Notes: generated by a model from the sequence alone, not told the origin. Shown: positions 1 to 63,138, counted from the first letter of the whole stretch. The stretch: DNA of 63,189 nt, filler included, from Reclinomonas americana ATCC 50394 (GCA_048213135.1; 8 parts of 2 records of this genome joined end to end with filler, not necessarily neighbours in it); one strand, 5' to 3'. Translations and numbers: made by a program.

Positions 1-3000
1 TACGCGTTGCTGCGCGAGGCGGAGGCGGAGCGTGAACGCGTGTCGCTGGAGCGCACGACGGCGGTGCGTGCGCTCGAGGGCAGTCTGTCGGAGGCACGAC
101 TGGAGGTGGCCACCTTGCAGGAGCAGTTGGCTGCTGTGCAGGCGCGGCTGGAGGCTGTGAGTGCCGAGGCGCAGGCCGCCAAGGATGAGGTACTTGTGGC
201 CAATGAGTTGCCTGTTTCGACATTTTGGAGCTCACTCATTCTCTTTTCGAAACTGGCATATAGTGTGAAGGACTGCGTGCACGACTGGAAGAGCAGCGCC
301 GGCAGCTGAGCGAGCAAGTGTCTGTGCTCACCGAGGAATGCGGTCTGCTGCAAGTCAATGTGCGCAGCGTGCACACGCGCAACGAGCAACTCGAGCGCGA
401 CAAGTTGGCACTGGATGCCATGATCCGCGACCTGCAGCGACAGCTGTTTGAGGTCACGGTGGAGCGCGACGACTTGCGCAATCGACTGGCCGCCGCCGCC
501 ACAGGCGAGCATGCGGTGCGCGCCGAGTTGGAGGATCTCGTGTCGCAGTGGACCGTGTTGCTGGAGGAGCACACGTTGCTCATTCACACGGAGGAGACCA
601 CGCGCACGACGCTGACGCAAGTGACGGCCGATCTCGAGGCTCTCCGCCGCGACTTGGCGGCGCTGGAGAGCGAGAATGCCGACATGCGCGCACGCCTGGC
701 CAAGTGCATGTGTCAGGGTCGCGATCTAGTGGCCTCGATTGCCGTCGATGTGTGGATGCCATCGCACGTCAAGCATCGCATCCGCGGCCTGAAATGTTGC
801 GCCCTTTTGTGTGAGGAAAGGAAAGTGCTGACAATGACGGTTCCTGCTCACGCGCAATCTTGATTGGTGTGCAGTGCTGGACTCGCTGCGATCGTTGAAG
901 GAACGCGCCTGCGAGCAAGAGCAGTTGTCGGCCTCGTTCGCGACGCACTTGCGGCTGACCACGGCGGCCAATGGCGAAAGCGCGCCGGCCGATGCGGCGA
1001 TTGTTTCGGCCAACGATGCCGATGAGCAAGAAAAGGACAGCAAGACGTTGATGGCGCTGGGCATTGACAATGGCGGAGCCGTGCACATGGTACGGAGAGT
1101 CACGAAGGGTTGTAAGTCGTTCTGTGTGTTCAATCTCAAGTTTTGATATTCTGCTCAGCGCTGGAAGTCACTGTTGGTGGCCATGACAACGTGGACGGGC
1201 AAGAACGTCATTCTGCAAATCACTCGTTGCGCTTTGTTATAGTCATTACTGTTAACTCCTTCTTCAGCTCATCTCGCTTCTCCGCAGCCTACACTCGTGT
1301 TGGCGAGCTGCAACACCGTGCCGTGCAAGAGGAGGGCCTTCCCGACTCGCACGCCAAGAACGTCCGTCTGCGCTGTGGCGACTCGCCGCTCTCCAAGGAC
1401 CCCGACACCCTCCTCGGCGTGCTCGGACCGCTCTTTGGACAGGATTTGGCCGCGGTGCGATCTTGGCTGGCGCTTCTCTCTCCCTTTCTTCTCGCAGCCG
1501 ACTTACATCTTGTGGCACTTGCAGTCGCTGGTCGAGGGTGCCGGCAAGCGCCACGAGAAACTCGAGTCGGCGCCGGTGGTCAGCGTCACCACGCCGCTGA
1601 AGCCGGTGGCGCAGAGTTATTTGGACAATGTTGGTGTGGCCGACGCTGGCGAAGGACTCGACCAAGTCAACGTGCCCGCTCCAGTGGCGGTGCAGTTGCC
1701 GAAACACAGCCCCTACCACTTCCGCATCCGGTCCAAGAAGGCGCGCCGCCCCAACACGCCAGTCACCAACAACCTCGTTGCGTTGGAAACGAGGAAGGCA
1801 TTCTTTTCGTTGCTCGCCGATACTCACTCGTCGCGTGCGCAGTATCCGCTGGACCCCAACTTCCGCGTGGAGCTGGTGAGCACAGTGATGACGGCCACCA
1901 TGTATGACTTTTGCGGCAGCGTGAGCGTGATGCAGCGCTTTGTCAATCGCGGTACCGTGGCCGGTGGACGCTACCAGTACATTTTCCCGCGTCTCTCGCA
2001 GAGCATGACTCTCTGCCAGTTCACCCTGTTCGTCAACGATGCGGAGATGCAGACGACTGTGGATCGCCAGTGCCAGCCGTGCGACGAGTTCGACAATGCG
2101 CCACCGTGCACCGAGATGGCCTCGCTCATCACCAATCTCGACCAGGAGGTGTTGCTCATTGACTTGGGTGCACTGGAGCAGAACGATGAAGTTGCGCGAG
2201 AATGGTCGGGCGTGAAGAGGGGTGTTTGGTTGCTGACACGGCGGTGGTGACGGTGGTGGTGCACAGGTCGAGGTGCAATTCACATTCACGATTGTGGCCT
2301 CGTACGACCTCAACTCGCAGTCCATGGTTCTTGCCGTGCCACTGTCGCCGTTTGCACCTTCTCGCTGGTGTGTATTCTGGTTTGCACAAGCCTTCGAGAG
2401 GTCGTGCTGCTCATCTCTTTTGATGCAGGGGCGAGGCTGAGGATCTCCTGGATGTCATCTGGCACTCGACGCCCAGTATTGCGTCGGTGCAGTCGCCGAC
2501 ACATGCGCTCAAGTTGGACGTGCAGGAACATGAGGTAGCTGCTGCCGTTGCATGTCGTCTTCTTCAACTCTTCCCTCACTTTTTTATGTTGAAGACATTT
2601 GCGATTGGCGTCGGAGGCGAACCCGCACAGTCGTGGTTCGTGCTGGCCATGTGTGTGCCAGCGATTCCTTTCCCACTGGTGACTGTCACTCGGCACCCGA
2701 ACATTGCCGATCGTGACCGTCGTGCCAACACGCTCTGCGTGGCGCTCGGTGCGAAGAAGCGTACTGTGCTTTTGTTCTATTTCTAGATTGCTGCTGACTG
2801 CGCCTCCCACGCTCGTTTCGTGTGCAGTCCCGCCCCCGGAGCTGGCGCCGACGGAAATCAACCAAGAGTTCATTTTCATTGTCGACTGCAGTGGTTCGAT
2901 GGAGGGCAAGCGCATTGCGTCCGCGCGCAAATCGCTGCTGCTGTTCATTCAGAGTCTGCTCCCCGACGTCCCATTCAACATTGTCAAGTTGCGTTGTGTT

Positions 3001-61200: not shown

Positions 61201-63138
61201 ATAAGAAACTTGGCCTTTCCTCCTCTCCCTCATTATCACGCTCGCAGTCTCTTTTCTCTTATTCCTCTATTCACTGACTGCCTGTCTATTTCTTCTCTCC
61301 CATCAGTATGACTCTATTCTCTCTTTCTCTCGCAAAACGCCTCTCCTCCTCCTCCCCCTCACTATCACGCTCGCAGCATCTATCTCTTCTCTTATTCTAC
61401 TCTTCACAGACCGCCTGTCGTCGTTTTCTCCTTTCCCTTCAGCATCTCTCTATTCTCCTTTCTCTGACAAAACGCCTTTCCGCTTCCCCACTCCCTTCCT
61501 CTCCCTCTATTTCCCTCCCACGCGACTCACCACCGGGATGACGTGCGTCACACCATCACCAGAGTCAATGACGGTACCCGTCGATGCACCGCGCAGACCC
61601 AGACGCGCCACCTTCTTTGCGCCCCACGAGGCCGCCATGGCAAGCATGGCTTGCACGGCAATGTCCAGGCCTCGCACATTGAAGGTCTCAAACATGATTT
61701 CGGCCACGTACTCACGGTTCTCTGGTGGGCTGTGGGATGGGAAAAGGGTGTCGGAATGAGAGGGGAGATCGAGAAAGAAAAAACCGAGGTGAACGCCGTC
61801 GCAACTTCATCGGAGGCTCCGTCTGCACATAAAAACAGTGATCAGCCTCCGAGGTTCACCAGCACGAGCAAGACAGCTCACACGCAAACGCACCAACAAC
61901 ACCAGCTGCTCCTCGGGCTCACACCGCAGGTACTTGAAGAAGCAGTGTTCCCACAAGCGCTCAATCTGATCCCAGTTCTCGATCTTGCCCTCCTTCATGG
62001 GGTAGGCCAGGGTCGAGTAGCCAGCCTTGTGCTCCAGAGCCTCGTCGCTGCAGAAATGTGAGACAAACACACAGCGGGAGAATGACAAGCTAGCGTGACA
62101 CGAACCCGACCAAAAAGTCCAGGTCGCGCATTCTGGAGAGGGTGAGCGACAAGTGAGCGAATACTCGAGATGGCACGACATTGAAGGTATCTTGCTGGTC
62201 TTTTAAACATAGCAAAAAGAAACGAATGCGTGTGTGATAGAACACAGGGCAGGCACTACAGCTGCTTGCCTGCCCTCTCGGCGTGCGAGTGTGTGTGTGT
62301 GCGTGTGCAACTGAAGACAAGGCAGGCGCCCTCTCGGCTGCCTGTTCACCCTGTGCGCTACAGCAGGCGCGCCTGCTCGACTGCTCTCACCAACAGAAGG
62401 TGTGTGCGTGTGTGAGAGTGAGAGAGTAAATACAGAGAGAGAGAGAGATCGAGTATGGAAAGAACAGACGTTGTCTCGCTTGTCTGTGCACCCTGTGCGC
62501 TGCATACGGCGTGCCTGCTCGACTGCCGTCACGCATAGAGGAGTGTATGCGCGCGCGCGTGAGCGTGAGTGAGAGGATGAGTGTGCGTCTGCCTGTCATT
62601 CGTCGACAGGTAACCTCGCACGCCTGCTACACAACGCCTAATACATAAACACCCACATCATGCAACGCAACTCCGCAGGTCCAGCAGCACGCGGCGCACG
62701 TCCCGCTATGAGAGAGAAAAATGCAATCAGCGCAGGAATGCTCGGAGAAAATATATCCCTCAATCATCAACATCTCTCTCACACACACGCAGAGAATGCA
62801 CAAGCACAGCAAGCGCACACAANNNNNNNNNNNNNNNNNNNNGAGAGAGAACACACGGGTGTGTGTGAGAGAGAGAGAGCGCGCGCACGAGTTGTGTGTG
62901 TGTGTGTTATGGGGAAATGTGCAGACATGACGCACACTCTCCTCTCTCACTCACACACGCGCGCGCGCAGTGTCACTCGCCACTCACCAACATCGTCGTG
63001 CAGCGCAATCACTGTCGGGAACACAAATTGCGGCTCCAACTGCGCAGACACAGTGTGTGTGAGAGAGAGAGAGAGTAGTGTGTGCAGTCAGTGTGAGTGA
63101 GAGACGCAACGTTGCCAGCGTAGCCGACCTTGGTGTAG
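58273..63138 (-). CDS. ARP3: Actin-related protein 3 (Arp2/3 complex), 5'-partial
   Basis: [99 protein letters not shown] and QRYAVW. Confidence 0.93.

Follow-up and report, generated by a model that had tools for sequence, protein, structure and literature searches.

Introns in a 63,189-base stretch of DNA from Reclinomonas americana ATCC 50394 (GCA_048213135.1), which is the whole stretch of DNA analyzed here and is referred to as the window, appear to start in two ways: with the ordinary donor GTGCGT, or with a motif, GTTGCG(T), that has one extra pyrimidine at +3. Does the latter constitute a class of 5' splice sites of its own and, if so, what would read it? The sequence statistics and the protein comparisons indicate that the second donor class is real. 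To our preferred reading, that GTTGCG(T) would be a true second class read one base out of register, most likely by U1 small nuclear RNA (snRNA), we assign a probability of about one half. Donors are named below by the first intron base, with the coordinates of the heptamer in parentheses and a slash at the exon–intron boundary.

Enrichment of the shifted motif on the coding strand

The initial annotation had listed 33 donors of the shifted type, and all 33 coordinates carry such a motif. Twenty-seven read GTTGCG, five read GTTGAG, and one, at 29220, reads GTCGCG. The last exon base is A, C or T in 31 of them, as had been counted, the exceptions being 8724 and 31481. It should be noted that GTTGCGT and the heptamer of the ordinary donor at positions −1 to +6, GGTGCGT, differ solely in the second letter. 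In the genes checked, between about a fifth and a third of the introns belong to the shifted class; the initial annotation had put the share at a fifth to a quarter.

The window is dense with genes full of short introns, typically 57–80 nt, with a CT(C/G/A)A(C/T)-like motif 10–30 nt upstream of YAG (Y, pyrimidine), and its coding strand is rich in pyrimidines. When both strands are pooled, the hexamer GTTGMG (M, A or C) shows no enrichment (87 copies versus 84.4 expected by shuffling). Equal frequency at GTs that are not donors had been named as an outcome that would speak against the class, and the pooled strands would give exactly that outcome, whereas the strand split shows an excess on the coding strand only. 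There, 43 copies of GTTGCG compare with 20.5 ± 4.5 expected, and none of 300 dinucleotide shuffles reaches that count (maximum, 34). For GTTGCGT the figures are 25 and 5.5 ± 2.3, and again no shuffle of the 300 has as many copies. The antisense strand is at expectation for both words (14 versus 14.3 for GTTGCG, and 3 versus 2.8 for GTTGCGT). GTTGAG is not enriched (17 found versus 26 expected), which leaves this sub-type dependent on single cases, of which 16369 is firm.

A gene finder without a donor model, used solely to show motif enrichment, gives GTTGCG as the commonest donor hexamer, at 12 of 102 predicted donors versus 57 of 6916 GT sites (0.8%). With self-training this program finds 9–12 of the 26 homology-fixed donors, and training on the genes that contain them raises the number to 20. 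A branch-like motif with a YAG 42–130 nt downstream accompanies 21 of the 32 claimed GTTGMG sites and 15 of the 26 homology-fixed donors; the figures for unclaimed sense copies and antisense copies are 5 of 29 and 4 of 27, respectively. Intron size and branch-like motifs are alike in the two donor classes (median length, 71 versus 67 nt). A common origin of the shifted-class introns from introner-like elements was considered and ruled out, as the sequences diverge directly after the heptamer.

Shifted donors placed by protein homology

Junctions were placed with a protein-to-genome aligner whose only splice-site rule is that an intron runs from GT to AG. For the type IIC P-type ATPase gene (~18460–10880, minus strand), the queries were one database relative (P0001) and 12 extra homologues, 13 in all. 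The extra homologues come from metagenome loci, where 21 open reading frames were eligible (at least 800 residues, no X) and 12 of these were used. Five relatives were used for the ARP3 gene (63138 to ~58340, minus strand). Junction margins are the score lead over the next different donor when all GT..AG pairs within 36 nt are enumerated. A word-indexed protein search for full-length relatives gave one match for an ATPase exon and none for an ARP3 exon or a propeller-gene exon, and a metagenome scan for close relatives sharing the introns gave none that is close, the best match having 61% identity over one exon.

Ten of the 33 sites are fixed by homology, two have partial homology support, 13 come from the gene finder alone, three were placed by eye, and five have no independent support. 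Of the 33, 21 are found by the main gene finder, which learns its donor model from the data and lets the −1 base vary independently of the intron side. The homology-fixed sites are 18303, 18131, 16477, 16369, 11450, 63110, 61805, 59386, 57065 and 2988, and at these ten the use of the GU as a predicted 5' splice site follows from protein homology alone.

In the ATPase gene, P0001 by itself gives 20 introns that include the donors 18303, 18131, 16477, 16369 and 11450. The site 18303 (18297–18303, t/GTTGCGT) is chosen by all seven homologues reaching it (six of six extra ones), with a margin of 21. Its score of 124 beats that of an in-frame ordinary donor, g/GTGAGCA at 18279 (103), which lies 24 nt downstream inside the 66-nt intron (18238–18303); the two are possibly a pair of alternative donors. 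The site 16477 (16471–16477, t/GTTGCGT) is chosen by 13 of 13 homologues (12 of 12 extra) with a margin of 35, as is 16369 (16363–16369, a/GTTGAGG), which ends a 31-nt exon, with a margin of 18. The site 11450 (11444–11450, t/GTTGCGT) is chosen by 12 of 13 (11 of 12 extra) with a margin of 14. The placement of 18131 (18125–18131, t/GTTGCGT) is weak, with six of the seven homologues reaching it (five of six extra) and a margin of 2 over 18101. An ambiguous junction, in which the cut falls one base later with a matching shift of the acceptor, was also ruled out, since the exons downstream of 18303, 18131, 16477 and 16369 start with C or T.

In the ARP3 gene, 63110 (63104–63110, c/GTTGCGT) and 61805 (61799–61805, a/GTTGCGA) are each chosen by five of five homologues, with margins of 33 and 23, respectively. 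The support for 59386 (59380–59386, t/GTTGCGT) is moderate: it is a gene finder pick chosen by one of the five homologues, the best one, with a margin of 9 over 59410. The remaining two lie on the plus strand. At 57065 (57065–57071, a/GTTGCGT), the flanking exons meet on residues 168 and 170 of the alkane 1-monooxygenase structure 8f6t_A, the split codon being residue 169, and likewise on 8sbb_A. At 2988 (2988–2994, a/GTTGCGT), the upstream exon matches positions 2–40 of Pfam VWA_3 and the downstream exon positions 42–89, so that the split codon corresponds to position 41; a search of the downstream exon against solved structures gave no relevant match.

The two sites with partial support, 12369 (12363–12369, a/GTTGCGT) and 11653 (11647–11653, c/GTTGCGT), sit in an ATPase region with a lineage-specific insert. 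Both are gene finder picks chosen by 5 of the 12 extra homologues. The alignment is ungapped across the junction at 12369, and 11653 has the in-frame rivals 11674 (four homologues) and 11659 (three). The exon between them (11654–12287, minus strand, 634 nt) contains a Pro/Ala-rich insert absent from the homologue (two large gaps, ~65 residues in all), which the aligner tends to skip as false introns.

Exon base −1 and the register of the motif

The two classes differ clearly at the last exon base. Among homology-fixed donors, G is found at −1 in none of eight shifted sites versus 19 of 20 ordinary ones (Fisher p = 2.9e-6). The ordinary donors said to follow an exonic G (3362, 3511, 43027 and the 5-phosphatase array) do so, and 9105 is indeed an exception; the ordinary donor 12483 is supported by 11 of the 12 extra homologues. 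The site 62991 was left out of this comparison because the five ARP3 relatives disagree there. However, the initial annotation had tied the shifted motif to the absence of G at −1, and this holds only in that the classes differ: the shifted class is no poorer in G than composition predicts. G precedes GTTG in 11.8% of its 519 occurrences in the window and precedes GTTGCG in 1 of 57. Since G before GTTG is rare window-wide, the contrast at −1 reflects a requirement for G in ordinary donors rather than any avoidance of G in shifted ones.

The intron side points to a displacement by one base. The base counts given here leave out four gene finder calls contradicted by homology (18279, 18101, 16795 and 16485). 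Of the 46 ordinary donors after G, 38 (83%) have G at +5, compared with 0 of 33 shifted donors, which have C (28) or A (5) there. Instead, all 33 have G at +6, and 26 of 33 have T at +7, the ordinary class having T at +6 in 22 of 46. One base further in, the shifted class is in fact the stricter of the two, with C in 28, G in 33 and T in 26 of 33, versus 20, 38 and 22 of 46 at the corresponding ordinary positions. Measured against the window's own consensus, the shifted motif moved by one base equals G/GTGCGT at six of seven positions. Among words of the form GNTGCGT on the coding strand, those with T (25) and G (8) at N are frequent, and those with A (2) and C (3) are not; the frequent words are solely those that contain GU. 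In composition, −1 of shifted donors (A 13, C 9, G 2, T 9) is close to −2 of ordinary ones (A 14, C 16, G 5, T 11). Reading the motif one base out of register would fit these statistics.

Among short introns, 6 of 16 with a shifted donor are in phase 2, versus 4 of 40 with an ordinary donor after G. From these small counts, the excess is a first hint that would fit donors independent of a codon that supplies G. Exon position −6 is G in 18 of 33 shifted donors versus 10 of 46 ordinary donors after G, which may be chance or a codon effect.

Pairing with U1 and the proposed reading

Pairing energies were calculated with ViennaRNA for the human-type U1 5' end given in PMC4856993, which may differ from that of the organism. 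GUUGCGU gives −1.6 to +0.5 kcal/mol in any register, and GGUGCGU no better than −5.0 kcal/mol; heptamers with A in place of C pair more strongly. Because GUUGCGU hardly pairs with this end, plain shifted pairing to an ordinary U1 would not be enough by itself, and a changed U1, or a second one, is a realistic option. With a hypothetical U1 end that has GC at positions 5–6, the ordinary site gives −12.9 and the shifted site −9.5 kcal/mol, the latter in the shifted register. In the calculations, both GUUGAGU on the human-type end and GUUGCGU on the hypothetical end take the shifted register with a 1 × 1 mismatch and no bulge. The options are a differing U1 end in this organism, two or more U1s, or a different component as the reader of +5.

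We propose that the reader of the ordinary G/GUGCGU, most likely the 5' end of U1 snRNA, would read /GUUGCGU one base out of register. The first G of the intron would take the usual place of the last G of the exon, U+2 would form a single mismatch, and UGCGU (+3 to +7) would pair as +2 to +6 of an ordinary site do. Cleavage would still occur before the only GU available, being set later by U6, U5 and Prp8. In such an arrangement the exon would contribute nothing to recognition, and therefore shifted donors could follow any exon base. The analysis shows that the sites are donors of a frequent, strand-specific class that differs from the ordinary one at −1; the RNA or protein that acts as reader, and the register it uses, are inferred.

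A broader proposal, which we regard as possible but doubtful, is that the lineage routinely runs two donor registers. The U1 5' end would be altered, with G or C in place of the two pseudouridines of other eukaryotes, or a second U1 would be present, and G-(G/U)-UGCGU would be one binding word, cut before whichever GU it contains. If so, a fifth of the donors would be independent of exon sequence, and introns could persist where the codon supplies no G.

Several observations weigh against the register shift and should be set beside it. All junctions are predicted from sequence. All counts come from one window, which includes 3,327 N and has ~52% G+C, and the strand map and most of the ordinary donors are those of our own gene models. 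The scarcity of G at −1 in the shifted class (2 of 33) is not beyond composition, and its −2 position has no clear likeness to −3 of the ordinary class. One ordinary-type donor, 15089 (15083–15089, minus strand, t/GTTCGCAG), follows T, is chosen by 12 of the 12 extra homologues and stands as the sole firm exception to the rule that ordinary donors follow G. Finally, the human-type U1 end pairs better with GUUGAGU (−6.0 kcal/mol), yet C is preferred over A at that position by 28 to 5. On this modeling, an unchanged U1 does not explain the motif.

A rival reading is a dedicated second U1, perhaps with a matching U6 variant, whose 5' end would complement GUUGCGU in the ordinary register, so that two recognition systems would run side by side with no shift. 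GUUGCGU is nearly unpairable with the human-type end, the class is very uniform (27 of 33 GTTGCG, 26 of 33 with T at +7), and it prefers C where ordinary donors split evenly between C (20) and A (18). However, two independent systems would make the one-letter difference between the two heptamers a coincidence, and we consider such a dedicated snRNA rather unlikely.

A bulged register with the same U1 would also yield the motif, with G+1 and U+2 paired ordinarily, U+3 (or U+2) bulged out, and GCGU paired as the usual +3 to +6. Bulges at +2/+3 are described as validated in human cells by Tan et al. (2016, PMC4856993). Since 32 of 33 sites have U at +2 as well as at +3, the position of the bulge would be degenerate here, as it is in the human cases. 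A bulge, however, would leave the exon G paired and thus favor G at −1, yet the share of sites with that G (2 of 33) does not exceed the 12% background, and ViennaRNA prefers the mismatch form for these oligonucleotides, with a U1 end that is not the organism's own. A true shift is favored over a bulged U because the −1 G preference is missing; the bulge is judged unlikely.

Less probable again is an explanation with no change in U1 register, in which the sites are the intron-heavy half of a seesaw between exon and intron strength, read by U6, U5 or LUC7-type proteins with a lineage preference for UUGCGU. Predicted ordinary donors after a base other than G are mostly doubtful, and the credible ones tend to have the full GTGAGT or GTGCGT (4074, 38838, 9105 and 8476), in keeping with a seesaw. 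The known intron-heavy class, however, keeps G at +5, which is found in 0 of 33 here, and pairing with the U6 ACAGA box would likewise need a move by one base. That many of the sites are not donors, the coding-strand GTTGCGT excess having another cause and the gene models being forced, is highly improbable: five claimed sites are unsupported, GTTGAG is not enriched and the open frame at 1777 needs no intron, but ten sites are homology-fixed without any donor model, and the coding-strand excess of ~20 GTTGCGT matches the number claimed.

Other candidate sites and features of the window

The gene for a coiled-coil/VIT/VWA protein (19–5096, plus strand) contains, besides 2988, three gene finder picks: 796 (796–802, t/GTTGCGC) with a 79-nt intron, 1226 (1226–1232, c/GTTGCGC) with a 62-nt intron, and 2191 (2191–2197, a/GTTGCGC), where the exon before it reaches position 103 of the 111 in the VIT profile, a consistent but inexact placement. 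A fourth site, 1777 (1777–1783, c/GTTGCGT), was placed by eye, with a 66-nt intron and CTCAC 14 nt before the CAG at 1842; the frame is open spliced or unspliced, so the intron is not required. The variant 29220 (29220–29226, plus strand, a/GTCGCGT), the sole site with C at +3, comes from the gene finder alone.

Four sites fall in the gene for a propeller-containing protein (~10138–5900, minus strand), and they lack homology because the exon searched gave no protein matches. The gene finder gives 7457 (7451–7457, a/GTTGCGT) with a 65-nt intron, 8724 (8718–8724, g/GTTGAGT, with G at −1) with a 72-nt intron, and 9719 (9713–9719, t/GTTGCGT) with a 96-nt intron and an in-frame TGA at +7. It missed 8004 (7998–8004, c/GTTGCGT), which was placed by eye with a 67-nt intron to 7938 and then needs a 13-nt exon.

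The gene finder also gives, on the minus strand, 18656 (18650–18656, t/GTTGCGT) with a 192-nt intron in an N-terminal region without homology, 31481 (31475–31481, g/GTTGCGT, with G at −1) with a 62-nt intron, 33633 (33627–33633, a/GTTGAGC), 38300 (38294–38300, a/GTTGCGT), 46694 (46688–46694, c/GTTGCGT), and 46908 (46902–46908, c/GTTGCGT) with a 60-nt intron. The apparent stop near 38291 is removed by donor 38300, as had been stated: an in-frame TGA lies 8–10 nt into the intron. The site 32799 (32793–32799, minus strand, c/GTTGCGT) was placed by eye from its acceptor, a branch-like TGCTCAC and the fit of the frame. It follows the 10-nt exon (32800–32809) that the shifted motif was said to expose; this exon has good signals on either side and restores a coiled-coil frame, as judged by eye alone. 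This exon and 7925–7937 (13 nt), both on the minus strand, are candidate micro-exons, each adjoining a shifted-class donor.

Five claimed sites, all on the minus strand, have no independent support: 19724 (19718–19724, c/GTTGCGT), with an upstream coding score of −1.0; 20572 (20566–20572, a/GTTGAGT); 31148 (31142–31148, a/GTTGCGC), weak on both sides; 48126 (48120–48126, t/GTTGAGT), on the strand taken as antisense there; and 62671 (62665–62671, a/GTTGCGT), in a variable part of ARP3.

Further coding-strand GTTGCG copies outside the original list are possible donors on the minus strand, at 22883, 52947, 55354, 39040 and 7153. The first (22877–22883, t/GTTGCGA) is a gene finder pick with a 163-nt intron. 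The second (52941–52947, a/GTTGCGT) has a branch-like motif and a YAG 68 or 86 nt downstream, and the gene finder took a GT 5 nt later. At 52947, 55354 and 39040, a branch-like motif and YAG are found at 55–86 nt, and the copy at 7153 is followed, 6 nt further downstream, by an in-frame g/GTATGTGG.

In the ATPase gene, a 33-nt exon (15905–15937, minus strand) with the donor g/GTCAGTGT was found by the spliced aligner alone. It fills an 11-residue gap in the alignment, where the homologue has a stretch ending in DKT, before GTLT. The AlkB-type alkane hydroxylase (alkane 1-monooxygenase) gene (56822–57854, plus strand) matches bacterial solved structures with E ~1e-13 per exon and is cut by short spliceosomal-type introns. 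The window also holds a SpoU-type methyltransferase gene (plus strand) and an inositol 5-phosphatase gene (minus strand).

A scan of the window with Rfam gave nothing at gathering scores and, at E ≤ 1, no snRNA and only sub-threshold matches to microRNA models. Many such models match both strands of two hairpin-like stretches, 42340–42431 and 48709–48822, all far below gathering scores; these stretches are probably inverted simple repeats. Besides longer N runs, paired blocks of 44 N exactly 12 bases apart occur in seven places (10576–10675, 15362–15461, 37432–37531, 44194–44293, 48257–48356, 53036–53135 and 56331–56430).

Comparison with known donor systems

Literature searches with the motif words returned primers and unrelated RNAs alone; the organism's own genome literature and supplementary files were outside their scope. 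Searches for registers that are shifted or bulged, and for a division of donors into two classes, led to work on human, plant, worm and yeast, none of which describes a GTTGCGT-type motif.

Like U12-type donors, the shifted class serves a minority of introns and has a highly uniform motif distinct from that of the majority. The U12-type consensus is RTATCCTT, however, and GTTGCGT bears no likeness to it, so that the shifted sites do not belong to that type.

A general division into exon-leaning and intron-leaning donors is described in the relevant parts of PMC11732430, and the window resembles it in having two separable, anti-correlated classes, one of which leans on the last G of the exon. 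The homology-fixed ordinary donors vary at +3 and +4 (GTG, GTA, GTT and GTC), as in the exon-side AG//GUNNN class. The shifted donors, in contrast, differ from the intron-side NN//GURAG class, which has a purine at +3 and G at +5: T occupies +3 in 32 of 33, and +5 is C (28) or A (5). They show the G at +5 that defines //GURAG only when read one base further in.

The closest likeness is to the human shifted-register 5' splice sites (Roca and Krainer 2009), which are established according to the parts of Tan et al. (2016, PMC4856993) that treat them. There, as proposed here, the intron side matches the consensus one base further in, G+1 replaces the exon G at −1, and cleavage stays at the GU. 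The human oligonucleotide tested, ACA/GUCAAGUAUA, has the same layout as H/GUUGCGU here (H is A, C or U), although the displaced core is GCGU here and AAGU in the human sites of the same account. The human bulge +2/+3 register in PMC4856993 is similar in that the intron starts with GUU followed by a consensus tail, but as described there it keeps the exon G at −1 paired, a preference absent here (2 of 33).

The frequency also differs. In the same parts of PMC4856993, non-canonical U1 registers are treated as rare exceptions, all validated ones together covering ~1.5% of human sites, whereas here, in one window, such a register would serve a fifth to a third of introns. Gene finders with a single donor model will miss or misplace introns of the shifted class; our own runs misplaced or missed 18303, 18131, 16477 and 16369 and did not find the adjoining micro-exons. 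If the register shift is true, the window would offer a natural system for asking how the cleavage site is fixed independently of U1 binding, how U6 takes an extra base after the GU, and how donor classes and snRNA 5' ends co-evolve. Compared with the known systems, what is unusual here is the frequency, the uniformity of the motif, and the one-base displacement of an intron-leaning class.

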